Shown here: positions 185-21,875 of the stretch, in pieces
Layout: every line of letters starts with the position of its first letter
Numbering within the stretch: the stretch's first letter is position 1
Virus record (IMG/VR): IMGVR_UViG_3300032303_001047
Coordinates: 1 to 27,682 of that record
DNA: 27,682 bases
Reading direction: 5' to 3' (one strand)
Source of the DNA: a virus
Taxonomy: Duplodnaviria; Caudoviricetes
Position numbers and translations under genes: made by a program
The notes under the pieces: model-generated
The model's database searches: none
Seen by the model: only the letters and a program-made list of their open reading frames with translations
Told to the model about the DNA's origin: nothing

Positions 185-823
185 ATGAAAAAGTATAAAA
201 GAGGAGATAGGCGAGAGGATGGTATGATTTTTTGGAGATACAATCCTCGTTATAACAATGGAGAATATTGGATTACAAAAGATAAATTTGAATCCATGAA
301 TAAAGTTGAATTGGAAAGGGTTAAGAAATGGCAAATTGATAACCATTCCAAACGGAAAACTTATATTAGATATTGGAATAAACTAAATTATTATTCTATT
401 AGGAAAAAGCAGGGTGAGTATTTTAGAAATAGAATGAAATCTGATAAGGTTTTTAGGTTAATAAAAAATGTTAGACATAGAATATCAAGATCATTTTTGC
501 AAAAGGGATATACAAAAAAGTCTCAATCCTATCATATTATTGGATGTTCATGGGCTGATCTAATAAAACATATTGAATCACAATTCAAAGATGGCATGAG
601 TTGGGAAAATCGCCATTTGTGGCATATCGACCATATTATTCCTATAGCAATAGCAAAAACAGAAGAAGAAGTTTTTAGGTTGAATCATTATACAAATCTA
701 AGGCCGCTTTGGGCGCATGAGAACTTTGCCAAAAAAGACAAAATAACTCCTGAAGCATTGTTGTGGACATTCTGTAAAAACCTTGATATAAAATCATACT
801 TCAGCAACCACCAATATGTCTAA
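185..823 (+). CDS. HNH-type (homing) endonuclease
   Basis: WHIDHIIP...NHYTNLRPLWAHENFAK HNH core; basic N-terminus; AT-richer than neighbours. Confidence 0.8.
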   Translation: MKKYKRGDRREDGMIFWRYNPRYNNGEYWITKDKFESMNKVELERVKKWQIDNHSKRKTYIRYWNKLNYYSIRKKQGEYFRNRMKSDKVFRLIKNVRHRISRSFLQKGYTKKSQSYHIIGCSWADLIKHIESQFKDGMSWENRHLWHIDHIIPIAIAKTEEEVFRLNHYTNLRPLWAHENFAKKDKITPEALLWTFCKNLDIKSYFSNHQYV

Positions 824-1175
824 AAAATATATCCTACCGCCGTCCCTTAAATCCTCATTCGAGGAAGATCCCGTTCTAAAGCAAATCAAAGAACAGGGAG
901 AATCCAAGAAGATGCCTGAAGTCAGCTTCTATCAGGCTGTAGTTCTTGCTCTGCTTGAGCAGAGAAACTATTTCATGGTCGAGACTTTTCGTTATGCACA
1001 GCAATATGGACAACTGCCGCCACTAGAAAACAATGAGAATGAATCAGTCACCATCAAAGCAGAAACGGAAGTACCAGAGAAGGAAGAAGGCGTTGAACTC
1101 AAAGTCCTCCCTCCTCCCACAGAGCAACCTAGAACCAAGTTCACCAAGACCTATTCCGATGACAATCAAAGCTAA
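816..1175 (+). CDS. hypothetical protein
   Basis: 119-aa ORF overlapping the upstream stop; AACCAC leader motif. Confidence 0.6.
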   Translation: MSKKYILPPSLKSSFEEDPVLKQIKEQGESKKMPEVSFYQAVVLALLEQRNYFMVETFRYAQQYGQLPPLENNENESVTIKAETEVPEKEEGVELKVLPPPTEQPRTKFTKTYSDDNQS

Positions 1176-1362
1176 TCCTATTGCTGAAATGGAAAAGCAA
1201 TCTGCTTGGGAAGCAATTATCTCTGGGCTTGCGGCATCTGGTGAGCTATCTCCAGAGACGCTTGCTCAAAAGGGTGGATCGGAGCGTGTTAAGATCCTAG
1301 CAGTACACGCCGCTAATTTGGCTGGACATTTCCATGCCGCTTATAGCAAAGCCAGCAAGTAG
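1159..1362 (+). CDS. hypothetical protein (MTIKANPIAEMEKQ...)
   Basis: Internal ATG at 1159 of the 1033..1362 ORF gives coupled overlaps with both neighbours. Confidence 0.55.
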   Translation: MTIKANPIAEMEKQSAWEAIISGLAASGELSPETLAQKGGSERVKILAVHAANLAGHFHAAYSKASK

Positions 1363-2878
1363 GTTGGTAATCCAGTTAGGTCGGGCGGGGGATGTAATCA
1401 ATATCCTGCCAATCCTATATCAAGAGTTTCTTTTTACAGGGGAAAAGCAACGATTGATGGTTGCCAAGGATTATGCCGACATCCTTGAGGGTACATCCTA
1501 CATTGAACCTGTAATCTACGATGGGGATTTTGCTGATATTACAGGGGCTATTGAGTATGCCAAAACGCTTGGTGAGGAATATACAACCACTCAAGTAATC
1601 GGTATACCAGATGTTGTGGTATCACAGGTTTATGGAAACAACCATAGCCCAAAGATTATCTGTGATGGCTTCCAAAAAGATAGCTACAAGCTATTGGGCA
1701 AGCTGGATTTATGGCCTAACCAGCCTCCTCTGGTGTTTGATCGTAGGGATAAGAAGAGGGAAAAATTGCTATACAAGTATATCCCTACTGATAAGCCTTG
1801 GTTGGTAGTCAGCACAGGGGGCGTATCGTCTCCTTTTCTGTATAATGATTTGCTTTGGGAGCTACTGAACAATTCTCTAACAGAGTTTCATGTCGTTGAC
1901 CTATCGAAAATCAAGGCAGAACGCTTCTATGATATTTTAGGTATCATGGATCATCCGAATACAGCGGCAATGATCCTTACGGATAGTGGCAATCTGCATC
2001 TCTCCTATGCCTCTAAAAAGCCTGTTCATGCTATAGTGGCAGATTCTCCTACGATGTGGCATGGAGCCGCTTGGAGGCCATCCTACGCTTCTTATACACG
2101 CTATGGGAATTTCCCACGGGATGTCACTAGGATCTTGGATCTTATCAGAAAGCCACGCGCCAAGCCAAAGCTACCGAATATCATCCATGTTTATCAAAGA
2201 ACCCCTTGGGCTACAGGAGATGAAAAGCGCAGGAATGCCATAGCCACTATGACATGGGAGAATATCGGGTGGGTCGATTGTGGGTTGGATGACAACTGCT
2301 TTGTAAGAAACTCATCCAATGTAATACCCACAGAAAAGAAGAGCATTCCCATGATTAAGGATATGCTCCGAATGGCCTGTGTCGGGCGTGATGATAAGGA
2401 TGTATTGGTGCTGACTAATTCAGATACTTGTGTGGCATCAAACATAATTGAACGGCTTGCTGGACAACTCCCTGCTTATGCCTTCCGATATGACTTCAAA
2501 TACATAGATAAACCGATACCCGACGATAACATTATCTATGGTAATAAGTATGCGGGATGTGATCTTTTTGTGATGAGGGTAGGATGGTGGAGGCGTAACC
2601 ATACCCTTTTTCCCGACATGGTTCTAGGAAGGCATAGTTGGGACAGAATCTTCAGAGAACTGATTAAATTATCTCAAGGTCGTGAGATAAATTATCTAAT
2701 CTACCACGAACGGCATCCATCGGCATGGGAAGACCCTCGCAATCTCAACAACGACCCTTCCAACTTACGCAATTGCAAGTTGGCGAGAGAGTGGCTACAG
2801 GCAAGGAATATGCCCCTGCTTGAGATAGAGAACCTTAACTACGAGGGACGAAATAAGAAGCCAGCAAAGAAGCGTTAG
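1334..2878 (+). CDS. two-domain glycosyltransferase: N-terminal GT9 (heptosyltransferase-like), C-terminal putative GT-A-like domain
   Basis: QLGRAGDVINILP and LTDSGNLHLSYASKKPVHAI resemble the GT9 motifs (LGDxx / DSGxxHLAxA); second half has VLVLTNSD, a DxD-like motif. Confidence 0.7.
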   Translation: MPLIAKPASRLVIQLGRAGDVINILPILYQEFLFTGEKQRLMVAKDYADILEGTSYIEPVIYDGDFADITGAIEYAKTLGEEYTTTQVIGIPDVVVSQVYGNNHSPKIICDGFQKDSYKLLGKLDLWPNQPPLVFDRRDKKREKLLYKYIPTDKPWLVVSTGGVSSPFLYNDLLWELLNNSLTEFHVVDLSKIKAERFYDILGIMDHPNTAAMILTDSGNLHLSYASKKPVHAIVADSPTMWHGAAWRPSYASYTRYGNFPRDVTRILDLIRKPRAKPKLPNIIHVYQRTPWATGDEKRRNAIATMTWENIGWVDCGLDDNCFVRNSSNVIPTEKKSIPMIKDMLRMACVGRDDKDVLVLTNSDTCVASNIIERLAGQLPAYAFRYDFKYIDKPIPDDNIIYGNKYAGCDLFVMRVGWWRRNHTLFPDMVLGRHSWDRIFRELIKLSQGREINYLIYHERHPSAWEDPRNLNNDPSNLRNCKLAREWLQARNMPLLEIENLNYEGRNKKPAKKR

Positions 2879-3543
2879 CGTCTGGTGAAGATACAATCCC
2901 AATTTTGATCGTAATAACGGAATATTTCCCTGTACTCCCAATTGGGGAGATATTTCAGAATATCATCACAAACATAACCAAAGTTTGCTAGGGCATTAGG
3001 ATTAAATTCGCATACGATATACTTTAACGCAGGGTTGTTCAAAAGTTCTTTAGAACCTTCTAGGATCGCTGGTTCAAATCCTTCAGCGTCTAACTTTAGA
3101 AAGATATTAGCATCATCTTGAATGAAGTTTTTGTAATGATCGTCTAGTCGCATTGTTACTCTATTACCCCCTTCAACAACGGGTCTTCCCCCCATATTTC
3201 CTCCTTCAGAGTGATATATCTCAACAAGCCTTCCATCTCCAAGGGGTGTATGAATGCTTATTGCTTCTTTGCAGTTGTGCTTCAAGCATTGAAAGGCATC
3301 ACCTTGAGGTTCAAATGCAAGAACCTTAAATCCTTTGTCTATGAAGATCCTTGCTGTGTCTCCAATAAAAGCTCCCACATCAATTACCCATGATCCTTCT
3401 GGCATTGAATTAAGTTCTGGTAGATCAATAAAATCTTTATCATACCCTAGCTTGCCAAAGTATTTGACTTGCTTGGATATTGATTGGTCGTTTTTAAGCA
3501 ACCAATAACCTTTATATTCTTCAACAAAATTAGGTATTTTCAT
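2875..3543 (-). CDS. FkbM-family SAM-dependent methyltransferase
   Basis: VIDVGAFIG, VLAFEP, RLDD, FLKLDAEGFE...ILEG motifs. Confidence 0.9.
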   Translation of the reverse strand: MKIPNFVEEYKGYWLLKNDQSISKQVKYFGKLGYDKDFIDLPELNSMPEGSWVIDVGAFIGDTARIFIDKGFKVLAFEPQGDAFQCLKHNCKEAISIHTPLGDGRLVEIYHSEGGNMGGRPVVEGGNRVTMRLDDHYKNFIQDDANIFLKLDAEGFEPAILEGSKELLNNPALKYIVCEFNPNALANFGYVCDDILKYLPNWEYREIFRYYDQNWDCIFTRR

Positions 3544-3758
3544 TCGTCAGAATTGTCTTCTCTTTCCTCTGGCATAACGAATGGCGTTATGGGTGTAGGC
3601 TGGAGAATATCCTGTGCAACAGGCATGGGTGTAATGCTGATGTACTCGCCACATTTAGATCCATCGGTTTCCGAAAGGTTTGCGATATAGAATGTCTGCG
3701 GAACGATTGGAGCCATGTACATGGTTCCTGCGGTTATTAATGGTAGTATAGGGTTCAT
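3540..3758 (-). CDS. hypothetical protein
   Basis: 4-bp overlaps with both neighbours. Confidence 0.55.
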   Translation of the reverse strand: MNPILPLITAGTMYMAPIVPQTFYIANLSETDGSKCGEYISITPMPVAQDILQPTPITPFVMPEEREDNSDE

Positions 3759-4045
3759 AGTTTGTTTTTATGGTTTACGCTCGACATATGCCAGTTGCCT
3801 CGCACAATGTCACATTCATAGGCTCGGAGAAAACCTGTTCCTCCGAATCCTTGTTTGAGCCTATGCTTGATTGCGGCATCACATTTAGCTTCGGATGTAT
3901 AAGCCGACTTGCCACAGGCACATTTCTTGGGCTTTTCATGCCCTTTAATTAGCCCCATTTCTATGGCCTCCTGTTTATTGATTGGAGGAATGTCAGGGGT
4001 TTCTAACCCGATTTCGTTTAGAATAAAGTCAATTCTGCTTTTCAT
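3755..4045 (-). CDS. hypothetical phage protein, possibly Zn-binding
   Basis: Probable start MKSRIDF at 4045; CACGK and RAYEC...WHMSS motifs. Confidence 0.6.
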   Translation of the reverse strand: MKSRIDFILNEIGLETPDIPPINKQEAIEMGLIKGHEKPKKCACGKSAYTSEAKCDAAIKHRLKQGFGGTGFLRAYECDIVRGNWHMSSVNHKNKL

Positions 4046-4199
4046 ATTCTTTTGCATCGATGAAGTAATCGCACTTGTCTTTCCCATCTGGATCAAATTG
4101 TACATAGGATTGCCATTCTGGATGTGTAGGGGCTAGATACCTCCAACACTTCTTGTGTGATGGGCAATCTGTATTCTGGCATTTAGATATATCTGTCAT
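4029..4199 (-). CDS. small Cys-rich phage protein (MTDISKC...C...C.RY...QSY...CDYF)
   Basis: Four spaced Cys; ATGA overlap with upstream gene. Confidence 0.65.
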   Translation of the reverse strand: MTDISKCQNTDCPSHKKCWRYLAPTHPEWQSYVQFDPDGKDKCDYFIDAKEYEKQN

Positions 4200-4477
4200 T
4201 GATTTATTTCTTTTTTTAGGTCGCTCAAATCTTTGCATGATTTCCTGGCATCTGCTGGTGTGTCCAAATCCATGATGCGATTTGCTATTTCTATTGCCCT
4301 AGTAAGCTGACCTTCAATCTTCTTGCAAAGATCACGGCAAGCCGCTGTATCTTCCCAATGAGGGGTTTCAATCCAGTTATGGCGTAATGCCTCTCCAAAC
4401 TTATCTGATCGTGGGGTATCAGACTTGGATTGTTCCACAATGAAATCACCTACAAGATGTTTAATTTCTTCACTCAT
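4196..4477 (-). CDS. hypothetical protein
   Basis: 93-aa ORF in a tightly packed operon; SDTPRSD motif. Confidence 0.6.
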   Translation of the reverse strand: MSEEIKHLVGDFIVEQSKSDTPRSDKFGEALRHNWIETPHWEDTAACRDLCKKIEGQLTRAIEIANRIMDLDTPADARKSCKDLSDLKKEINQ

Positions 4478-4622
4478 CTATTGCGGCCTTGATTGCTTCG
4501 TCGATCTTTAGGGTCTTACCTAAAGCATTAAGCATCTGGATTTCCGATAGAACGGATTCAAGATAGCTGATGTGCTTTTTTAGGCGTTCAATTACTTCTA
4601 CCATAGGGTCTTGTGGTGTCAT
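4470..4622 (-). CDS. hypothetical coiled-coil microprotein (MTPQDPMVEVIERLKKHISYLE..., 50 aa)
   Basis: Translated manually; fills the gap exactly; AACCACGCA leader. Confidence 0.6.
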   Translation of the reverse strand: MTPQDPMVEVIERLKKHISYLESVLSEIQMLNALGKTLKIDEAIKAAIDE

Positions 4623-4630
4623 ATGCGTGG

Positions 4631-5125
4631 TTATTTGGTTATACTATCAAGGTATTCTTGTTGGATTGATTTAGGCCAGATTTTGAATGGGAATGTATTC
4701 CATGTAGGGTGGACAAGCATGGAGTCGGGATATACCCAACAACGCCAATCAAATGCTGATTGTTCATCTGCCCCAAGTCGTGAGGTGATGCTTGGCTTTT
4801 TGGATTTAAGGGCATCGTAATCCATTCCTTCATCCTCGTAGCGTCCTTGATTAAGCCAAGTGCTAGGGTTTGGGATAAACTTGCCACCCTCTTTTTGCCA
4901 ATCGGGAGAAGCGATAGCCTTTTTTAATGCTGGAAGAACTGATTCTATAGATAGCTTTTTGCGCTTCCATATCTCCTCACAATAGCCCTTTGCTACCTTT
5001 TTGGGGTATGCCCTCCAGAAGTCAAGGAAACCGCTTGCAGGGGCTTTCTTGGGCTTTACAGGGGCATCCTGTAGTTTGATTTGTTGCCCACAGCAGGGGC
5101 ATATCTCTGGATCAGAACTCTTCAT
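4631..5125 (-). CDS. replication-initiator / replisome-organiser C-terminal-like domain protein
   Basis: FLDFWRAYPKK...W.K.GGKFIPNPSTWLNQGRYEDE motif; N-terminal CPCCG. Confidence 0.65.
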   Translation of the reverse strand: MKSSDPEICPCCGQQIKLQDAPVKPKKAPASGFLDFWRAYPKKVAKGYCEEIWKRKKLSIESVLPALKKAIASPDWQKEGGKFIPNPSTWLNQGRYEDEGMDYDALKSKKPSITSRLGADEQSAFDWRCWVYPDSMLVHPTWNTFPFKIWPKSIQQEYLDSITK

Positions 5126-5450
5126 ATGACCATTCCTTCTTTTTGTATTGGACGGCAACGAACCGAAACCAAGGATGGTTTTCAGCCGCTACCTTTATTT
5201 TTACTCGACCTGTACCCTGCCAAAAACCTTTGACTTCATGGAACTCAATAGTGCCATCGGCATTAATTATGAAGAAGTCGGGAGTATAGGTTGTCAACTT
5301 TGCCAGCTTCAAAGCCATAGCCTCAAACTGGTAATGATGGATCTCCCCTGCCTTCTTTCGTTCCTCTAGCAATGCGGCATAGGCTTGCTCTGTTTTATTC
5401 ATCTGACCCGCCACTCGACGGATTGTATTTGCTTTGGCTCGGAATCTCAT
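5112..5450 (-). CDS. DUF1064-like PD-(D/E)xK nuclease
   Basis: MNKTE..YA..L, TYTPDF, EFHEVKG motifs. Confidence 0.8.
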   Translation of the reverse strand: MRFRAKANTIRRVAGQMNKTEQAYAALLEERKKAGEIHHYQFEAMALKLAKLTTYTPDFFIINADGTIEFHEVKGFWQGTGRVKIKVAAENHPWFRFVAVQYKKKEWSYEEF

Positions 5451-5785
5451 TCTTCGTCAAATGTTGATTTGGATAGCTTGAAAATGCCATCCAAGTCTTT
5501 TTCTTGCTTCATTATTAACCTTGAGTATCCCGCCGCAAAAGCATTGGGAAACTTGAATTGTTCATCGCTATCCACATTGATGAAATACTGCCAACGCAAT
5601 ACCTCAAACAACATTTGGATACCAATCACGGCATCGGGACGTTTACTCCTAAATTTACGAGCAAGCTGTACAAGGTTCCTGTACACATGAGGATTATTCG
5701 TATGAAACCTTTCAAACCTAGAAGCTAGATCATCAAAGATTTCATTCTCAACTGGAGAGAAATCAAAATCAAATTGGTCACTCAT
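5447..5785 (-). CDS. hypothetical phage protein
   Basis: F..FH..NPHVY...LFEVLRW...N...AGYSRLIM pattern; coupled overlaps. Confidence 0.65.
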   Translation of the reverse strand: MSDQFDFDFSPVENEIFDDLASRFERFHTNNPHVYRNLVQLARKFRSKRPDAVIGIQMLFEVLRWQYFINVDSDEQFKFPNAFAAGYSRLIMKQEKDLDGIFKLSKSTFDEE

Positions 5786-5994
5786 AATGTCACCCTAGGG
5801 AAATTGATTTGTCCCTTGTTTGAAGCAAAGCAATCTAGGTTGGAATAACTACGGCTTGCCGCTTTCATTCCTGCATCGAATGCTTCCATAACCCTCTCCT
5901 CAATAGAGGGGCATCGCTCTTGTTTATCCTCCTTGACGAGCAACCTAATGTGGTCGCTCTCAAGGTATTGGTATGCTTCTTTAGAATAGCTCAT
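5782..5994 (-). CDS. hypothetical protein
   Basis: 4-bp overlaps on both sides. Confidence 0.55.
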   Translation of the reverse strand: MSYSKEAYQYLESDHIRLLVKEDKQERCPSIEERVMEAFDAGMKAASRSYSNLDCFASNKGQINFPRVTL

Positions 5995-6227
5995 GTTAAT
6001 TTAGCTTCTCTGGCTAATCTGTCCATTTCGTTGCTAAAGAGTTGCGTGAACCTATAGCCATTAAGTTTACCATTGATTTCTTTGGCATTCTCCTTGGCGT
6101 ATTTGTATGCCTGTGGGATTAGCTTGTTTCGGCTTGCAATGTATTTGCAGGAGTGCCAGCGAGGAATGTTTTGATATTCCATGCCGTTCTTATCCAAAAT
6201 TTCTTGGCAGGAGCAGTAAGCAATCAT
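5991..6227 (-). CDS. hypothetical protein
   Basis: 4-bp overlaps on both sides. Confidence 0.55.
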   Translation of the reverse strand: MIAYCSCQEILDKNGMEYQNIPRWHSCKYIASRNKLIPQAYKYAKENAKEINGKLNGYRFTQLFSNEMDRLAREAKLT

Positions 6228-6472
6228 CGGCTGAAGTGGTATGAAGCGTAGGCAATGACTGCAATGGAGACACTAATCAAAAGAAGCAGGACTACTCCAA
6301 ACGACTTCTTCATGTCGGATAGATCCTCCTCTAAATTAAGAAGATGCTCGTAGTTCTTACGGATCATTGCCCATTGGGAATCAAGCTCCTTCTTCTGGAA
6401 CTCAAGACGAGCATCCAGTTGGTAAAGATACGAGTTTATGGTTGGCTTTTTTGTTGGTTCTTTCTTATTCAT
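6224..6472 (-). CDS. coiled-coil protein with C-terminal transmembrane helix
   Basis: Heptad pattern followed by FGVVLLLLISVSIAVIAYA. Confidence 0.65.
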   Translation of the reverse strand: MNKKEPTKKPTINSYLYQLDARLEFQKKELDSQWAMIRKNYEHLLNLEEDLSDMKKSFGVVLLLLISVSIAVIAYASYHFSR

Positions 6473-6504
6473 TTGCGTGGTTGGTTGCTTGTTTATTCTA
6501 CTGA

Positions 6505-6828
6505 TCAGAATGGAAGATTATCTTCGTCTTCGATAGGTATCTGTACTGGTTCTGGCCTCTTGAATGCCTTTGCTGGCTGAACCTTGGAAGCCCAAGAGGT
6601 GTTATCCTTGACCTTGTAGTTTCCAAGGATGGGTTGCTTCTTTTTAGCGGCTCGGCTTTCCTTAGATAGTGACTGCTTAATCACTCCATCGTTGCCATAC
6701 TGGTCGGGAACTTCTGCCCCTGTATCGTCTGTATTTGCAAACATAACGATGTCGAGGTATGTTCCTTTTTCGCCTTTGTAAAGCTCTTCCTTGTCGATTT
6801 TCGATACATCAATTTTGCCTTTAATCAT
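6505..6828 (-). CDS. putative single-stranded DNA-binding protein
   Basis: Acidic SSB-type tail EDEDNLPF; KIDVSKIDK...G.KG.YLD...DQYGN...ILGN; located beside annealase and nuclease. Confidence 0.65.
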   Translation of the reverse strand: MIKGKIDVSKIDKEELYKGEKGTYLDIVMFANTDDTGAEVPDQYGNDGVIKQSLSKESRAAKKKQPILGNYKVKDNTSWASKVQPAKAFKRPEPVQIPIEDEDNLPF

Positions 6829-6849
6829 GGTGTTGTTTTGGTTGTTGGT

Positions 6850-7068
6850 TTACTGCGGTTGAAGTTGTGTTGGTTCATTGTCATCGGTAATAAATCCCTC
6901 TGACTTTAGATAATTGAAAAGGTTCTGTAATTGTTTCGGGGTGACTTTCCGATTATCAGCAGGGAAAGCACTAAAGTGGTTGCCATGATACATAACGATC
7001 CACTCACGGCCTTTGAACATAATCCATAATGCCCTAGCGTCTTCTGGATATTCATTTTCAGCGATCAC
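6850..7068 (-). CDS. hypothetical protein (probable GTG start, IAENEYPEDARALW...)
   Basis: C-terminal part of the 6850..7395 ORF; the rest overlaps the nuclease gene. Confidence 0.55.
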   Translation of the reverse strand: MIAENEYPEDARALWIMFKGREWIVMYHGNHFSAFPADNRKVTPKQLQNLFNYLKSEGFITDDNEPTQLQPQ

Positions 7069-8128
7069 GGGAGATGGATGGTTCACCTTCCTTGGTTTCG
7101 ATGAGCCATCCAAGCTCTGCATCAAGTGCTGACTTGGCATCCTTTGGCTTGATTCCCTTTGCCTTTGCCAATGCTTTTTCGAGAGATGTGATGCTAACTT
7201 TTGTGCAAGCAAGAAACTCATCTGGTTTAAGAATACCAGAAAGCGTAGAAGCGGCGGCGGCGACATCGGGGACACTACGAGATGTTCGACCTTTTGTGAG
7301 CGATAGTCCAGCAATTTGCTGTCCTGCCATGAGCCTTGATTTGAGTTCTTTTCGGATCTCATCAATGAAATCCTCCACGACCTCGGCCTTGGCATCTAGG
7401 GAAGCCAACTCCTCATTGGAGAGGGTTGCTATGGCAACACCAGATAGGATTTGAAGTTGAGTCTTTGCGGCCTGTGCTTGCCCATAAGCGTCAGGGCAAA
7501 TGCTTTTAGCACGACACCACTTGCAAGCATCATGGGAAGGAGTTCTTGGAGCATCGGGTTTGAGAGAAGCATTTACAATGCCAAGGATCTCTTCCTTTGC
7601 GGCGGCAAGCTCACTCTCGTTGTATTCGGCAATCGTTGTGCCTCCTGCAAGCGGCTGGATGATGGAAACAAAGATCGTCTTTAATTCTGGATAAGCCTCC
7701 TTGACCAAGACGGCATAAGCCTTGAGTTGGGTGTTCTCACTTGCCCTGCCTTGGGCGGTGCGTCCTGTCTTGTAGTCGGTGACTACGGCTACATCTCCAA
7801 AGAAGTCGATACGATCAATGGCTCCAGAGAACAGGTCTTGATACCAAAAACGCTCTTCGATGATCTCCTTGGTGCGTTCTCCAAGATCCAGTTGACGGAT
7901 CATGTCAGAGAACTCGGATAGGCATCGGGTGGCGATCTCCTGACCCTCCTCGGATAGTTCCTCAAAGGGCTTTTGGTCGGCTAGGACGGCATGGACATCC
8001 GTTCCTAACTGCATATAAGGGTTAGCCTCCTGTTCTGGAAGCGTGGATTCTAGGTTCCATGACCCTGCACATAGGGCAAGTCGGCTAAAGCCACTTGCGG
8101 AGGGCTTTCCGTTTCGTTCGTTAGTCAT
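7058..8128 (-). CDS. DUF2800 / Cas4-like PD-(D/E)xK exonuclease
   Basis: PSAS...LC, GTDVH, GAIDRI, VTDYKTG, QLKAYA, CKWCRAKSICP (Fe-S-type Cys cluster). Confidence 0.85.
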   Translation of the reverse strand: MTNERNGKPSASGFSRLALCAGSWNLESTLPEQEANPYMQLGTDVHAVLADQKPFEELSEEGQEIATRCLSEFSDMIRQLDLGERTKEIIEERFWYQDLFSGAIDRIDFFGDVAVVTDYKTGRTAQGRASENTQLKAYAVLVKEAYPELKTIFVSIIQPLAGGTTIAEYNESELAAAKEEILGIVNASLKPDAPRTPSHDACKWCRAKSICPDAYGQAQAAKTQLQILSGVAIATLSNEELASLDAKAEVVEDFIDEIRKELKSRLMAGQQIAGLSLTKGRTSRSVPDVAAAASTLSGILKPDEFLACTKVSITSLEKALAKAKGIKPKDAKSALDAELGWLIETKEGEPSISRDR

Positions 8129-11846: not shown

Positions 11847-11903
11847 CCAGAAGTTTTTTCTGGCTACTGCTCCCCCCATGACAGGGGAAGCAGGGTGTCA
11901 GAA
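11847..11903 (-). ncRNA. structured intergenic repeat E5
   Basis: UUCUGAC-ACC-[11-bp stem, GUCAU loop]-UA-GCCAGAA, plus alternative hairpin CCAGAA/UUCUGG. Confidence 0.65.
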
Positions 11904-12212
11904 TCACTTACTGATCCTTGTACGGAATCTGCGTTTCAGTTCCTTTGCCTCTTCCTTGAGGCGTTTCTGTTCCTTCTTTGCCCTAGCCTTCTCCAAATAC
12001 TTTCTCTGGCATCGGGAACGGATTGCCCAATGATAGATATCATCGATCCTAACTACCTCCTCCCGACGAGTACCAAGGGGTCTAATCTTGAGGAGATCAC
12101 CCTCTGCTGATGATTCCAGAGTGACGCACAGGGGCTTGCCTGTATCGCACCCGAAACCATAGCCAAGGGTGATCCTAGTCTTGCGTTTGACAGGTTTATT
12201 TAGCGGAGTCAT
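11904..12212 (-). CDS. hypothetical basic early protein
   Basis: 102-aa ORF with Arg/Lys-rich helical C-terminus. Confidence 0.65.
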   Translation of the reverse strand: MTPLNKPVKRKTRITLGYGFGCDTGKPLCVTLESSAEGDLLKIRPLGTRREEVVRIDDIYHWAIRSRCQRKYLEKARAKKEQKRLKEEAKELKRRFRTRISK

Positions 12213-12403
12213 GCTACATCAACTTTCTTGATGATTTTTATGTCATCATTACCAGCATTCTCCCAATCATTACAAAGATCACGCAACAAGTCTTTAAGCC
12301 TGTCTAGGTGATCCTCTGCTTGCTTAATAAGCCCCTCTGTGGTGCGGATGCGATCCATGACGATCTTTTTCTTGGATATATGCTCAACTACGAACTTTTT
12401 CAT
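12209..12403 (-). CDS. hypothetical early protein
   Basis: AAAGGA SD; ATGA overlap. Confidence 0.6.
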   Translation of the reverse strand: MKKFVVEHISKKKIVMDRIRTTEGLIKQAEDHLDRLKDLLRDLCNDWENAGNDDIKIIKKVDVA

Positions 12404-12421
12404 GCTGTTTCCTTTCTGTTC

Positions 12422-12482
12422 CCAATAGCTTAATTACTACTGGCTACTGACCCTGTATCTCTACAGGATCAGTTTGCCAATA
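12422..12482 (-). ncRNA. structured intergenic repeat E4
   Basis: UAUUGGC-AAA-[11-bp stem, GAGA tetraloop]-UA-GCCAGUA, plus alternative hairpin CCAGUAGU/GCUAUUGG. Confidence 0.7.
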
Positions 12483-12839
12483 TTAGAGAGCTAAGATGTT
12501 TTCAACACTAACATCAACACTCCACTCACCAATCCAAGGCTCATAGTCATCGTCACGGATGCTATAAACACCATCAAAACCACCATCAATTGCAATGTAA
12601 GTACCACCATGCTCTCGACACTCCAAAGCAATCTCCTTCAACTCTTTTAGAGTAGGATTAGCCTTGGTAAAGATAGGCTCATCGTGCTTCTCAAGCCTAC
12701 CATTCTTATCCATCATTAGGAGAGAAGTTCCCCTTGAGCGAATCAGTTGGAAATCTCTGCTATAAGACTCACGCTTGCACTTGTCACGCTCGTACTTAAT
12801 CTCTTCAATTAGTTCTTTATAACTACTGAATGTTTTCAT
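12483..12839 (-). CDS. hypothetical early protein
   Basis: AAAGGAG SD; 118 aa. Confidence 0.7.
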   Translation of the reverse strand: MKTFSSYKELIEEIKYERDKCKRESYSRDFQLIRSRGTSLLMMDKNGRLEKHDEPIFTKANPTLKELKEIALECREHGGTYIAIDGGFDGVYSIRDDDYEPWIGEWSVDVSVENILAL

Positions 12840-12866
12840 GTTATACTCCTTTGTTTGCTGTTTGTT

Positions 12867-12923
12867 TCTGCACTTTATGCACAGATTATTGCCCCCCCCA
12901 TTACAGGAGGGGCAATGTATCTA
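12867..12923 (-). ncRNA. structured intergenic repeat E3
   Basis: UAGAU-ACA-[11-bp stem, GUAAU loop]-UA-AUCUG, plus alternative hairpin UCUGUGC/GUGCAGA. Confidence 0.7.
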
Positions 12924-13772
12924 GGCACTAACTCCAAGAATGAAATCAGTAGATTGGTGCGCTTTAGCTGAAGCACTAACTACCAATTTTTTGTCGTTCT
13001 TCAGTCTCTTTAGCCAGCTTGCAATATAGGATGCAGAATTGTCAATCGTACGATCAACAATTCCAGCAGTTGCACAGAGGAAACTTGCCCCCATTTCTGC
13101 AACTAACTCTTCCTTTGCGTAACAGGCATCACCAAACTTGCTTACATCGTTCTGTAGCCTTCCAAGCCTATTCTCATGCCCTGTGGCATGGGTCAGTTCA
13201 TGGAACAACACAGAGTAGTAGTTCTCTACCTTATCAAATGTCTCCTTCTGTGGCATATTAACAAAGTCACTTGACCTGTTATAATATGCCTGTTGCTCAC
13301 CATGTAGAATGGTAGGCTTTTTAGGCATATTCGCCACAATCTTTTCAGCTTCCCCGATAGGGTCAAACTGAATCTTTTCCAGTTCTTCTGGCGTAGGATA
13401 TTTAATCCCATCACATTGGCTAACATTAAAAACGCTGTAGTATTTCAACATGGGAATCGTTTTCTTTTCCCCTGTTGCCTTGTCTAGCGTCTCAAACATC
13501 TTCCAGTAGACAACTGGTGTTGACTTCTCACCCTTGCGTACCTGTCCTCCCATCTCTGTGGCTTGTTTATAGCTGACCCAATAAGGGGAAGCATAACCAG
13601 CACAGGAGAGTAGCCAGACATTCACGCCTCGATAGGCTTTCTTACTGACTAGATTCATTGGTGCTTCTGAACCTGTTGCCCAAGGTTTATTCCAAGGTAC
13701 AACACCATCTTCTAACATCCCGATGATCCTGTCAGTTACGATTTGATATACGTCAACTTTTTCTTTGCTCAT
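12921..13772 (-). CDS. ardC: ArdC-family antirestriction protein (ssDNA-binding DUF1738 domain + zincin-like metallopeptidase)
   Basis: YQIVTDRII..LE.GVVPWNKPW, YRGVN, SYKQA..MGGQVRKGEK, HELTHATG, YAKEELVAEMGA; AAGGAG SD. Confidence 0.92.
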   Translation of the reverse strand: MSKEKVDVYQIVTDRIIGMLEDGVVPWNKPWATGSEAPMNLVSKKAYRGVNVWLLSCAGYASPYWVSYKQATEMGGQVRKGEKSTPVVYWKMFETLDKATGEKKTIPMLKYYSVFNVSQCDGIKYPTPEELEKIQFDPIGEAEKIVANMPKKPTILHGEQQAYYNRSSDFVNMPQKETFDKVENYYSVLFHELTHATGHENRLGRLQNDVSKFGDACYAKEELVAEMGASFLCATAGIVDRTIDNSASYIASWLKRLKNDKKLVVSASAKAHQSTDFILGVSA

Positions 13773-13804
13773 AATAACTCCTTTTTTGCGTTTTTGTTTT
13801 GATC

Positions 13805-13861
13805 TCAATAGCGTTATTGCTACTGATTACTACCCTCCCGAAAGAGGGTAGTTTATCAATA
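13805..13861 (-). ncRNA. structured intergenic repeat E2
   Basis: UAUUGAU-AAA-[9-bp stem, UUCG tetraloop]-UA-AUCAGUA, plus alternative hairpin UCAGUAGC/GCUAUUGA. Confidence 0.7.
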
Positions 13862-14104
13862 TCAACTTATATGCAATTTTGCAGTAAACTTACTAAACAT
13901 TAAGAAAGCAAAATCATCCTCTCTACCTTTGGGTATTCCTTGCGTTTTAGCTTTCAACCTATCAGAAAAAGGCTTAAACTTTTCCATAATATAGTCACTA
14001 GCTTTACCTTCAATTAGAGTAGATTCATATAACCAGTTTTCTCTCTCATATGCCCTTAATGCTGAAAGCATGATTGCATTATAATCTGAAGTGTTTATTT
14101 TCAT
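13862..14104 (-). CDS. hypothetical protein, first gene of the early cassette
   Basis: AAAGGAG SD; 80 aa. Confidence 0.7.
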   Translation of the reverse strand: MKINTSDYNAIMLSALRAYERENWLYESTLIEGKASDYIMEKFKPFSDRLKAKTQGIPKGREDDFAFLMFSKFTAKLHIS

Positions 14105-14149
14105 AACTAACTCCTTTGTTTTGATGCCTTAAATGGTAAGGCTACCATC

Positions 14150-14213
14150 ATCACACTCTGTGCTGATTATTGCCCCCTGTTTAATCGAAACTAAACAAGG
14201 GGCAATTTATCAA
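14150..14213 (-). ncRNA. structured intergenic repeat E1
   Basis: UUGAU-AAA-[16-bp stem, UUCG tetraloop]-UA-AUCAG, plus alternative pairing AUCA/UGAU. Confidence 0.7.
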
Positions 14214-14307
14214 AACAGCTTTTATGAGTTTTTCCAGCGTCTCTCGCAACGGATTTACAACCAACGTTCACCCTAGAGGGGGTTCCATTGTAACTTACTG
14301 CCTAATG

Positions 14308-14464
14308 CCATAGGGTGAGATCGTCACCAGCATTCGTCGGCAGGGTCAGGTCAGGAACCAGTTCGGGAATGAACTAGTCAACCAGCAAGGTCAAAATGTC
14401 AAAGAACAAAGGCTGAATCATCGTTCAACCTATCGGGAAAACCATTGGGTGAGATCGTCACCAG
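14308..14464 (-). repeat. two copies of CTGGTGACGATCTCACCCWATGG (14308-14330 and 14442-14464), each forming a GGUGA-CGAUC-UCACC hairpin
   Basis: 22/23 identical direct repeat. Confidence 0.85.
14397..14431 (-). promoter_or_regulatory. boxB-like hairpin followed by a boxA-like antitermination element (AGGTTGAA-N6-TTCAGCCT ... TGTTCTTTGACA)
   Basis: 10/12 match to rrn boxA TGCTCTTTAACA, directly after an 8-bp hairpin in the leader. Confidence 0.55.
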
Positions 14465-14482
14465 TTCGCCGTCGATGAAACC

Positions 14483-14510
14483 AATCTACCACACCCAAAA
14501 ACATTGTCTA
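14483..14510 (-). promoter_or_regulatory. early promoter TAGACA-N16-TAGATT with extended -10 TG and upstream A-tract
   Basis: Sequence match; lies upstream of the structured leader. Confidence 0.55.
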
Positions 14511-14545
14511 CAAGTTTTTTTTAGAATCTTTCAAGAATAGCCCCT

Positions 14546-14570
14546 GGAGCCGCATAAACACTAGCTCCAA
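14546..14570 (-). repeat. right copy of the 25-bp inverted repeat (minus strand TTGGAGCTAGTGTTTATGCGGCTCC)
   Basis: 21/25 identical to 11757-11781 in opposite orientation. Confidence 0.7.
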
Positions 14571-14811
14571 GCCCCTAAAACTTTTTTTTGACACCCTCAC
14601 CAGAAACCACAAAAACGACCTCTAGAAGCCCATTCTATCAACCTCCAGCCCTCCAAGCCCATTTCATCAGCATCTAGCCATTTCTTGCAACTCATAAAAA
14701 GCACACACACACCCACAATATGCTTGACAAAATCACCCCCCTTGCCCTTAAAATAGAAGCCCAAAGGAAAGCCCCGAACAAGCCCCGAAAAGCCCCTGCT
14801 CAAAAAGCCCC
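14569..14811 (+). repeat. AAGCCC(C) repeats in an A/C-rich non-coding zone
   Basis: Copies at 14569, 14626, 14654, 14757, 14769, 14780, 14790, 14805. Confidence 0.6.
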
Positions 14812-15594: not shown

Positions 15595-15807
15595 ATGAGC
15601 TTGAGGTATCCTGCCAAAGATTTGAATAAGCCTAGTATTATGTTGTTGAGGTCATTGGCGTTGGAGTTGGGTGAGATGCCAGAGAGGGGGAGTGGTGGGT
15701 ATGGTGGGATTAGGTTGGAGAGGGAGAGGTTGAGCAAGATTTTGAAAGAGCATATAAATGATGCTAGACTTTCTGATTGGGATAGGGATATGATACGGGG
15801 ACTATGA
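15595..15807 (+). CDS. hypothetical protein
   Basis: ORF after promoter; ATGA overlap. Confidence 0.55.
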   Translation: MSLRYPAKDLNKPSIMLLRSLALELGEMPERGSGGYGGIRLERERLSKILKEHINDARLSDWDRDMIRGL

Positions 15808-16166
15808 AAGCAGGAGAACTACTTATTACATTATTGAATGCGGCAACGATTGGTCATGTATTGCACTTGAGGAGTCGGAGTTATTCGGAGCATAAGGCTT
15901 TGCAGGGATTTTACCAAGGGTTGCCAGACTTGGTTGATAGTGTGATTGAGGCGTGGCAGGGAAGGAATGGAGAGTTGGTGGAGTATCCTGACCAGATGGT
16001 TGATTTGAGCGAGCATGATGATGCATTGGTGTATGTGATGTATTTGAAGATGTTGCTGGAGGAGGAGAGGGGAGTATTGGGGGGTGCTAGTGAGATCCAG
16101 AATTTGGTTGATGGGATAGCGGAGTTGATTGATTCAACGCTTTACAAGCTGACGTTCCTCAAGTAG
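15804..16166 (+). CDS. ferritin/Dps-like four-helix protein (DUF5856-like)
   Basis: HVLHL...SYSEHKAL..FY..L.DLVD..IEAWQG ... IQN..D.I..LI.STLYKL.FL. Confidence 0.8.
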   Translation: MKAGELLITLLNAATIGHVLHLRSRSYSEHKALQGFYQGLPDLVDSVIEAWQGRNGELVEYPDQMVDLSEHDDALVYVMYLKMLLEEERGVLGGASEIQNLVDGIAELIDSTLYKLTFLK

Positions 16167-16694: not shown

Positions 16695-17201
16695 ATGAAA
16701 AAATCGTATCCTATCCTTAATTACGTTTCAATCTCTGAAATTCTAAATTATGATCCATTTACTGGTGAAATAACTTGGAAAGTTAAAAGAGCAAATAATA
16801 TTTCAATAGGTCAAGTTGCTGGTGTTATAGATAAAAACGGATACAGAAGGATTAAAATAAGACCAAAGCTATATCTAGCTCATCGCATAGCTTGGTTATT
16901 GCATTACAAAGAATGGCCCAAAAATTTAATTGATCATATTAACATGAACCGTGATGACAATAGAATTGAAAATTTAAGAGAGGCTACTAAATCTCAAAAC
17001 ATGATGAACACAAAAAAATATCAGACTAATACATCTGGTATAAAAGGCGTTAGTTGGCATAAAAGAGATAAAGTATATCGTGCTGATATTACCATCATGG
17101 GAAAACATATAACTGTAGGAAGATTTGAAACAAAAGAAGAAGCTGAAAAAGCAATCATAAAAAAACGATTAGAAATTCACGGAGAATATTCTAATCAATA
17201 A
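16695..17201 (+). CDS. HNH endonuclease with C-terminal AP2 DNA-binding domain
   Basis: YDPFTG, AHRIAW, IDHINMNRDDNRIENLREAT..QN, NTSGIKGVSW, GRFETKEEA. Confidence 0.92.
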   Translation: MKKSYPILNYVSISEILNYDPFTGEITWKVKRANNISIGQVAGVIDKNGYRRIKIRPKLYLAHRIAWLLHYKEWPKNLIDHINMNRDDNRIENLREATKSQNMMNTKKYQTNTSGIKGVSWHKRDKVYRADITIMGKHITVGRFETKEEAEKAIIKKRLEIHGEYSNQ

Positions 17202-17204
17202 AAA

Positions 17205-17275
17205 CTGCCTTGCTAGGACTCGAACCTAGACAAGATCCTCCAAAGGGATCGGTGCTACCATTACACCACAAGGCA
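17205..17275 (-). tRNA. tRNA-Gln (UUG), CCA not encoded
   Basis: Full cloverleaf: TGCCTTG/CAAGGCA acceptor, GTGT/GCAC D-stem, GATCC-CT-TTG-GA-GGATC anticodon arm, CTAGG-TTCGAGT-CCTAG T-arm. Confidence 0.93.
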
Positions 17276-17277
17276 AT

Positions 17278-20242: not shown

Positions 20243-21217
20243 TTAAAAATCTAAATGCATGACTATACAGGATATGTCTGCACCAGATTTATCTGCTTCA
20301 TCAATGTCACAGAAAACAATGGAATAACCTAGTTTATCCATTGTGGTCAACATCCATTCCATACTTTTTTGGTACTTTTTTTCCTCTGGGAAGAACATGC
20401 CAGAAAGGATAATCTTCTTGTTGCCGGGAATTTTAACACAATTTGTAGCACCCGTGGACATAACATCATTTGGAACCTCAATAATGTTGGCTACTTTCTC
20501 AAGACGCTTGAACGATTCCTTGTCCATGCCACCCCTGCATACCATGAAGTTTTTTTCATCAATCACGAAAAGAGAACAGTCAAGGTGATACAGGGAGTCT
20601 GAAATTTCACGGATGGGTATAATCTCAACCCCTGCTTTTTTGGAAATCCATTCATGGGCTTTCCAATCAGAGAACTTTCCATGACCACCAAAATAAACAC
20701 CATCTTTCCATTTTTTAAGATCAGCTTCTCCTTCAAAAGCATGGGGGGGTTGAACAACTGTATATCCTCTTCTTTCAAAAAACTTCTTGGCAGGAGCTTC
20801 TTCTATAGTTCTCCCTGCGGCACTCATCTTTGCAAGAACTATAAAAGGATTAAGCGATATTCCAATGTTTGCAGTATAGTGTTGATCTTGTGCGCCTTTG
20901 ATTGGAGGTATTTCCAAAACAGCCACATCGAGTGCCGTCATCAATCTTTTTATCCTATCATACTGACGCATTGCCCTTTCGGTATCAACCTTTTGGCTAC
21001 GCATGAAAACATTGTTGGGTATGCGTGTAGAAAGATATTTTGGAGGGCACATCACAAATTGTGGCTTCCTTTTGTATAACTCACCAGAGGTATGGTTTGG
21101 TGCTATACCAGAATGTGTACTTTTTATAAGGCTAGAAACAGATGAATCAGTCCTTTTGTGAAGGACAGAAGGAATCATTGAACCGTTTCGGAAATCTTGT
21201 GTGCTGAACCTAGCCAT
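20243..21217 (-). CDS. pentein-superfamily amidinotransferase / arginine (di)hydrolase (ArgZ N-terminal / DDAH-like)
   Basis: MCPP, DQHYTANIG, R..EE, FEGEAD, YHLDC, C-terminal GADISC with the catalytic Cys. Confidence 0.88.
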   Translation of the reverse strand: MARFSTQDFRNGSMIPSVLHKRTDSSVSSLIKSTHSGIAPNHTSGELYKRKPQFVMCPPKYLSTRIPNNVFMRSQKVDTERAMRQYDRIKRLMTALDVAVLEIPPIKGAQDQHYTANIGISLNPFIVLAKMSAAGRTIEEAPAKKFFERRGYTVVQPPHAFEGEADLKKWKDGVYFGGHGKFSDWKAHEWISKKAGVEIIPIREISDSLYHLDCSLFVIDEKNFMVCRGGMDKESFKRLEKVANIIEVPNDVMSTGATNCVKIPGNKKIILSGMFFPEEKKYQKSMEWMLTTMDKLGYSIVFCDIDEADKSGADISCIVMHLDF

Positions 21218-21226
21218 ATTGTTAAA

Positions 21227-21255
21227 AGTATGCTTGTGGTTAAGAGTTGCGTCAA
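21227..21255 (-). promoter_or_regulatory. promoter TTGACG-N17-CATACT for the pentein operon
   Basis: Consensus spacing; 9 nt before the ATG. Confidence 0.5.
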
Positions 21256-21335
21256 TTCTAACTTTCTGTTATAAAAAACAAAGCTGGCGAGAATTGCGTT
21301 CTCAACCAGCTTTTAACCTCAACCATAATGCGTCT

Positions 21336-21875
21336 ATGAATGAAGCTGATGTAAATGTATTCCATTGTGATAATGGATCGCAAGCTCAATGTTTGCACAA
21401 AAAATTGTTGATAAAGTTTTGGAAATATTTCCTTGAAGATAAATCTGTCAAAGGGCCAAACAAAATCAAAAGGGAAGCATTGAAGGGAAACTTTAATGGC
21501 GGTTTAAAAAGCAAAGAAGAAAGACTTTATGTTTTAATCGACTACGCAAAAATCGTTATTGGTTGGAAAACTGATCCATCGAAAAAACGAACACAATTTA
21601 ACCAGATCAAAAAAACACTTCACAGAGTAGAGTTAAAAATAAACACCAAGTGTTTTGTTTGTCTTGGTCAGGCTCATTGCCGTCATCACATCATTCAGCT
21701 TAAACATGGTGGATTAAACCAAAAGAAGAATATCGTCAGTCTTTGCTCTAGTTGCCATGCTGAAATACACCCATGGCTAAAAAGTCCAACAAACCCCCCT
21801 ACCCCCCAGAAAAGATTTGCTGGCGAAAAATCGCTACCCTCAACAATAGCCGAAGGCAGAACATTTTTCTCCTAG
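21336..21875 (+). CDS. HNH endonuclease (Zn-binding CxxC...HH...CxxCH type)
   Basis: CFVC...HHIIQLKHGGLNQKKNIVSLCSSCHAEIH. Confidence 0.8.
   Translation: MNEADVNVFHCDNGSQAQCLHKKLLIKFWKYFLEDKSVKGPNKIKREALKGNFNGGLKSKEERLYVLIDYAKIVIGWKTDPSKKRTQFNQIKKTLHRVELKINTKCFVCLGQAHCRHHIIQLKHGGLNQKKNIVSLCSSCHAEIHPWLKSPTNPPTPQKRFAGEKSLPSTIAEGRTFFS

Follow-up and report, generated by a model that had tools for sequence, protein, structure and literature searches.

Five hairpin elements in a run of early genes

The window, that is, the whole stretch of DNA analysed here, is a 27.7-kb phage fragment (IMG/VR record IMGVR_UViG_3300032303_001047; 27,682 nucleotides) which is about 53% complete and encodes the small and large terminases, a RecT-like protein and an exonuclease. 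Beside the small terminase gene (terS), small minus-strand genes form a run, and the start of this run contains five hairpin elements, E1 to E5, which are considered here as candidate sites for the cutting of the phage early transcript by ribonuclease III (RNase III). The elements had been pointed out in an earlier note made from the sequence alone; their coordinates, their location on the minus strand and their loops (UUCG, UUCG, GUAAU, GAGA and GUCAU, from E1 to E5) have been confirmed.

In the direction of transcription, E1 (14150-14213), which has a 16-bp inner stem, is followed by an 80-aa gene (13862-14104) and by E2 (13805-13861), whose inner stem has 9 bp, or 10 if the pair called pb4 below is included. 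Next come an ardC-type anti-restriction gene (12921-13772; ArdcN and MPTase-PolyVal) and E3 (12867-12923), which overlaps the ardC stop codon. A 118-aa gene (12483-12839) separates E3 from E4 (12422-12482), and two genes of 64 and 102 aa (11904-12403) separate E4 from E5 (11847-11903), the outer stem of which contains one A.C mismatch. The four genes between the elements other than ardC have no match in Pfam or PHROG. Downstream of E5 there is a further strong hairpin and no close gene; this hairpin (11843-11790, minus strand) directly follows E5, its shape is kept after the last element of several cassettes, and a terminator-like call on the plus strand lies inside it.

The architecture described in the earlier note is found in all five elements: an outer stem, an internal loop of three by two bases (3x2), an inner stem of 9-16 bp and a UA on the 3' side. 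E2 to E5 begin at or overlap the upstream stop codon, and E1 to E4 lie upstream of an AAGGA site. Each core folds 2-7 kcal/mol better on the minus than on the plus strand, and in each element a mutually exclusive downstream hairpin can form within about 3 kcal/mol of the first fold. The absence of a U-tail also held, given that no U-tract follows the stem and a terminator scan called none of the five. On the other hand, the statement that the copies share little primary sequence had to be abandoned: they share a YURC...GYAR-UA-R core.

A strict descriptor found four matches in the window, compared with 0.1 per shuffled window (30 shuffles); E5 was missed because of the A.C mismatch in its outer stem. 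The covariance model described below recovers all five elements and no other site in the window. A sixth hairpin, diverged but sharing the 3x2 geometry of the loop, lies after the large terminase gene (terL) at 21825-21869 on the minus strand; it is orthologous to model matches found after terL in relatives, and it has no product hairpin (see below) at the first base. RNase III-like hairpins after terL are seen, for instance, in L009 (14398-14458) and L093 (3764-3821). Their 3' strand is U-rich, so they are possibly also terminators, and some of them carry a long inserted stem.

A covarying RNA family in the register of RNase III

Relatives were located via ArdC, TerS and a DNA pattern. The training alignment consists of 42 copies selected for pairing, in which 95.8% of the cells pair and each of the 16 pairs has double changes, values above those of all 500 shuffles and all slid controls. 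Since these copies had been pre-selected for pairing, the model built from them was used to gather further ones. It gave 95 matches in 35 sources, reduced to 73 distinct copies (21 of them outside the training set) after removal of duplicates and of four doubtful matches (L018, L026, L041 and an antisense match in L077). About half of the matches to this DNA pattern and to a second one, described later, were chance or duplicates and were discarded. The covarying family has 73 distinct copies in the phage group of the window and in one distant group, and 12 more in other lineages.

The stems of the 21 held-out copies contain 231 Watson-Crick, 34 G.U, 6 A.C and 2 other pairs. Among all 73 copies there are 136 G.U against 8 A.C pairs, and GNRA or UUCG loops occur in 40; this excess and these loops indicate that the sense-strand RNA is the folding molecule. 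Regarding the supposedly invariant UA, the A is indeed present in 73 of 73 homologous copies, while the U is found in 64. Similarly, the AMM triplet of the internal loop is present in E1 to E5 and is kept in 59 of the 73 copies, but in 7 of the 21 outside the training set.

The earlier note recognised no named family in the elements, and Rfam 15 gave no match at the gathering score, only tRNA matches in nine sources, and a best E value of 0.9 around E1 to E5. A covariance model of the kind which that note had proposed now exists, with covariation above that of shuffles, with homologues and with no Rfam counterpart. A literature search outside which most subscription papers lay found no description of this family, nor of a product hairpin built into such a site. 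The family may be among the 10,000 unnamed candidates of PMC10690425, three of whose files, among them the two largest, lay outside the search; in the six supplementary files searched, neither any of four short motifs nor either of two sample prefixes turned up. C-loop, sarcin-ricin and tetraloop-receptor motifs were also considered and rejected, since the covarying pairs dictate another geometry of the loop.

For the E. coli enzyme, PMC1540722 describes an 11-bp helix with G-C at the first pair of the proximal box (pb1), A-U or U-A at pb2, neither G-C nor C-G at pb4, and U-A or U-G in the distal box. These rules, which may not be those of the host's enzyme, were applied in a register laid out on the fetched T7 and 16S records from the mapped cuts at T7 R1.1 (5887) and E. 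coli pre-16S (-115 and +33), as given in PMC8708148; the remaining four T7 cut positions rest on motif analogy. In the elements, pb4 is formed by the third loop base and the U.

In this register, the helix counted from pb4 has at least 11 bp in 68 of the 73 copies and 10 bp in the other 5, the search thresholds having required at least 9. A-U or U-A occupies pb2 in 69/73 copies, compared with 72/438 at six other stem positions, and does so in 21/21 held-out copies and in 13 of the 14 classes into which the 73 copies collapse. The 5' strand has G at pb1 in 57 copies (46 G-C and 11 G.U; the other 16 differ). G-C or C-G never occurs at pb4 (0/73), where A-U (42) and C.U (18) prevail and where T7 R1.1 has U.C. 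An A stands two bases before the predicted cut in all 73 copies and at four of the five T7 sites.

A mirror-image box is present on the outer stem, with A-U or U-A at pb2' in 59/73 copies, G at pb1' in 61/73 and, as on the inner half, C-G at pb3' (53/73); C-G also appears at pb4' in 16/73. The two-fold symmetry about a 2-nt stagger is best at zero among seven shifts, also in the 21 held-out copies. Symmetry at exactly this stagger is what would be expected from selection by a homodimeric enzyme that cuts with a 2-nt stagger, and on each half the conserved pairs match an RNase III proximal box.

The predicted nick follows UAR and leaves one base of the outer stem on its 5' side: it lies at 14167/14166 in E1, 13827/13826 in E2, 12886/12885 in E3, 12444/12443 in E4 and 11864/11863 in E5. 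The T7-like processing suggested in the earlier note fits the register tests, with the correction that the cut is predicted one base 3' of the AMM/UA loop and not within it. The extra base and the mismatch on the 5' strand would probably stop a second cut, by analogy with the internal loops that do so at natural RNase III sites, including those of T7 (PMC3867540). No RNase III gene was found in the five records searched, four of them at least 90% complete, nor in the other-lineage records searched, so the enzyme would be that of the host. By this modelling on the E. coli rules, E1 to E5 are likely sites at which host RNase III would cut the phage early transcript.

The second fold agrees with this register. 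In 68 of 70 early copies it starts immediately 3' of the predicted nick; in E1 this is at 14166, and in E2 to E5 the hairpin spans 13826-13805, 12885-12867, 12443-12422 and 11863-11847. The mean pairing probability rises from 0.15 just before the nick to 0.87 just after it. In the predicted product the first base is paired in 68/70 early copies, compared with 36% of shuffles for base 1 or 2, and the hairpin has -7.6 kcal/mol, compared with -2.4 in shuffles. The second hairpin omits one base of the outer stem, precisely the one that the predicted nick removes. As a mere rival partner should cover the whole outer strand, the omission makes substrate and product the most likely reading of the two folds, rather than a ligand switch.

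RNase III cleavage normally exposes a monophosphorylated end on the downstream message and thereby speeds its decay. If the elements are nicked once, the inner hairpin would form the 3' terminus of the upstream message, with a predicted 2-nt overhang, and the downstream message is predicted in silico to refold a hairpin from its very first base. Since pairing makes a 5' end resistant to RNase E and RppH (PMC3997798), a protective role can be proposed for the product hairpin: paired ends would shield the monophosphorylated products from end-dependent decay and give a stable message for each early gene, ardC included.

The closest known system is that of the R0.3-R1.3 sites of T7, which are, like E1 to E5, hairpins with an asymmetric loop between early genes, the first of which are anti-restriction genes. 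The proximal-box register, the A two bases before the cut, GNRA loops, an 11-bp upper helix and a single nick leaving a 3' hairpin, predicted here, are shared, according to PMC1540722, PMC3867540 and PMC8708148. However, the sequences are unrelated (the model R1 gave no match in T7 300-8000 with E values up to 1), and the elements differ in their 3x2 loop, in U-A at pb2 and in C-G at pb3. Besides, nearly all early copies have a product hairpin from base 1, whereas in T7 (L078) only the downstream products of R0.5 and R1.1 (after 1468 and 5887), two of five sites, can fold a weak hairpin, from the second base. Unlike in T7, a cassette can hold as many as 11 copies, and its genes are swapped.

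Leader, gene exchange and other lineages

The small genes, separated by this conserved, strand-specific and covarying stem/3x2 loop/stem, are headed by one promoter-like site. This sigma70-like promoter (14483-14510, minus strand) has an A-tract upstream and keeps its position in 9/9 aligned leaders. It is followed on the same strand by a hairpin (14431-14410) and a boxA-like sequence (14408-14397), as in rRNA leaders, and by a long irregular stem (approximately 14243-14389) with covariation among nine relatives. The boxA-like sequence fits the consensus GYTCTTTAANA, as given in PMC5725501, at 10 of 11 positions, and the variants in relatives equal those of bacterial rRNA leaders. The order of promoter, hairpin, boxA-like sequence and long stem is that found at the head of rRNA operons, and by analogy suggests host antitermination. 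The E. coli 16S site also has the same pb2, pb1 and distal-box pairs as the elements, but the stem of an rRNA is a long-range duplex in which both strands are cut, whereas the elements are local hairpins with a predicted single nick. The same 15-nt hairpin appears twice in the leader (14462-14448 and about 14330-14316, minus strand); in some relatives the second copy is absent or other hairpins stand in its place.

Ten cassettes were compared, with 3 to 11 elements each and about 30 gene families, 13 of them seen once. As the earlier note had proposed to verify, relatives retain the elements while the intervening genes are swapped and reordered; for example, two genes that precede ardC in L001 follow it in reversed order in L011 and L075. 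Each of the three resolved exchanges used a short homology of its own: one a 24-nt repeat whose end lies in the loop, another the 3' outer strand and the third the Shine-Dalgarno/start region. Alignment ends fall in the loop and inner stem in 3 of 275 cases (5.9% of the length) and in the product hairpin and spacer in 123 of 275 (11% of the length), although the pairs are not independent and ends at gene borders are expected anyway. No tyrosine recombinase (PF00589) was found in five records, four of them at least 90% complete, although the host might supply such an enzyme. Without an integrase, the exchange reads as homology-driven, like that at the PeSLs of T4-like phages, and would probably be promoted by the RecT-like protein and exonuclease of the phage acting at short homologies among the repeats. 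Because each gene carries its own unit, such exchange could swap or reorder genes without breaking expression. PeSLs (RB49, phi1) are likewise repeated intergenic elements and gene-exchange points in a hypervariable early region (PMC2839356, PMC4122927); nevertheless, they consist of promoter and terminator, whereas E1 to E5 have neither call and their conserved features fit an RNase III substrate.

The cassette seems to have been acquired by a subclade. The 0.9-5 kb past terS that were read in 14 other terL relatives contain no ardC and no early element, and the base skew flips at the cassette edge, the region 11850-14800 differing from downstream genes on the same strand; both facts point to acquisition. 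Those 14 relatives have A/C-rich early genes in place of the cassette.

The element is also found between early genes of a distant group (G003, G004; terL 27%, DNA polymerase A). The second pattern, which fixed only the loop and inner core and left the outer stem and mirror box free, gave 25 distinct matches outside the clade of the window, 14 of them with an outer stem; among these 14, pb2' is A-U in 12 and pb1' has G in 13. Five other-lineage records, one of them complete, lack the terL family of the window. In other lineages the element also follows ArdC-type genes or phrog_12094/phrog_1221 (DUF932-like) genes (L200 400-1407, L188 1701-2621, L042 2170-3213), both types being typical of early transferred regions.

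A search of terL against cultured phages gave no match, and the genome matches were only distant copies (27-28%) in an Opitutae metagenome-assembled genome (MAG) and an Altibacter MAG. In the phylum of the Opitutae MAG, the covariance model matched 0 of 151 genomes, the pattern matched 4 of 401, which is not above the reversed control, and a strong terL match occurred only in the seed MAG among the 401 genomes. The 16S processing stems of that phylum show a U-G-C/G-C-A run like the inner box in 13 of 14 cases judged by eye, which were not counted because the cuts are unmapped.

Elsewhere in the window there are a tRNA-Gln(UUG) gene (17204-17276, minus strand) and an amidinotransferase-like gene (Pfam DDAH_eukar; 20243-21217, minus strand), the latter missing at the equivalent place in L009. 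HNH-like open reading frames, judged by eye, lie near it at 16695-17201 and 21201-21875. A DUF5856/ferritin-like gene (15804-16166) stands beside terS, and an FkbM methyltransferase is encoded at 2875-3543.

Weighing of the explanations and biological meaning

Several observations weigh against RNase III substrates with a built-in product hairpin. The copies are related (14 classes) and 52 of the 73 were selected for pairing, so the counts overstate independence; by class, the rules for pb2, pb1, the mirror box and the product hold in 10-13 of 14, and that for the distal box in 8. At pb3 the copies have C-G (47), U-A (22) or G-C (4), where E. coli prefers A-U, and the distal box is only partly canonical (U-G 28 or C-G 26; U-A 32 of 73). 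At the site mapped in E. coli 16S the pairs are likewise off-optimum, with G-C at pb3 and C-G/U-A in the distal box. One class (4/73) has the inhibitory G-C at pb2 on both halves. For 42 of 70 copies the product hairpin is the fold that the energy model prefers in uncut RNA, and for only 22 it is the outer stem, the preference being near zero for E2 and E5. Finally, the first base is paired in 7 of 14 other-lineage copies and in none of the three post-terL copies. Related to the energies, the outer stem forms first during transcription, and a minimal substrate needs a single set of boxes only.

The near equality of the two folds would also suit a switch in uncut RNA, in which a terminating ribosome melts the outer stem and the second fold gates cleavage or downstream expression. 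The upstream stop codon does end 9-10 bases (27/51) or 5 bases (11/51) before pb4, at or inside the outer stem. This is nevertheless an unlikely explanation, since the Shine-Dalgarno site lies outside both folds (5' leaders are mostly 35-66 nt), the base avoided by the second hairpin would be pointless for a pure switch, and E1 has no upstream gene. Somewhat less likely again is a target of another double-stranded-RNA-binding or processing protein, such as Mini-III or a phage protein, or an RNase III site that stabilises without cutting. Two-fold symmetry shows merely a dimer, some copies break the E. coli rules and the majority of phage genes are without known function, but the conserved pairs match the RNase III boxes and the 11-bp minimum specifically, and recurrence of the motif in phages that do not share terL points to a host factor.

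Partial intrinsic terminators or pause hairpins grading expression of the operon appear improbable: strong G+C hairpins directly after stop codons and the U-rich 3' strand of the post-terL copies would fit, yet E1 to E5 have neither U-tract nor terminator call, and a conserved internal loop, outer stem and mirror box would not be needed. Integron attC sites are likewise hairpins that follow each gene from its stop codon in an exchangeable array, and their fixed crossover lies in a conserved AAC/GTT core. Single-strand DNA recombination sites of this type could explain why elements begin at stop codons and why the intervening genes differ and change order among ten cassettes. The idea of the earlier note that the elements are recombination sites survives as gene swapping between them; as site-specific recombination it has very little chance, because there is no tyrosine recombinase in five records, the exchanges used three different homologies, and alignment ends are scattered and avoid the loop and inner stem. 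Unlike attC, the elements lack integrase, fixed crossover and conserved core (AAC/GTT is present in a minority of the 14 classes) and have RNA-type loops and G.U pairs. Self-cleaving ribozymes, also raised in that note, are just as hard to credit: the intergenic position and the downstream 5' hairpin recall phage ribozyme arrays, but Rfam has no match, and a single unbranched stem with one invariant unpaired base offers no recognisable catalytic core.

Beside cutting by host RNase III stands a broader and much more tentative proposal, a two-state 'cut-and-cap' module. Its outer stem would exist briefly after transcription, or when upstream translation is lacking, so that cleavage by RNase III would be gated; some 60 bases could make a captured gene self-stabilising and, together with an rRNA-like antitermination leader, form a plug-and-play anti-defence array present in several unrelated phage lineages.

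Neither the enzyme nor the general strategy is new: both are textbook knowledge from T7. What differs from T7 is the systematic product hairpin and the use of the sites as repeated joints of a shuffled array. The sites appear to build the cure for decay into the substrate itself, in that the strand which the nick releases would refold into a blunt 5' hairpin. If this is true, it would be a compact natural device that turns an operon into stable single-gene messages, it would supply about 85 natural variants, each with its cut predicted to the base, for the study of RNase III rules beyond model bacteria, and it would explain how the phage can reshuffle its early genes without loss of expression.

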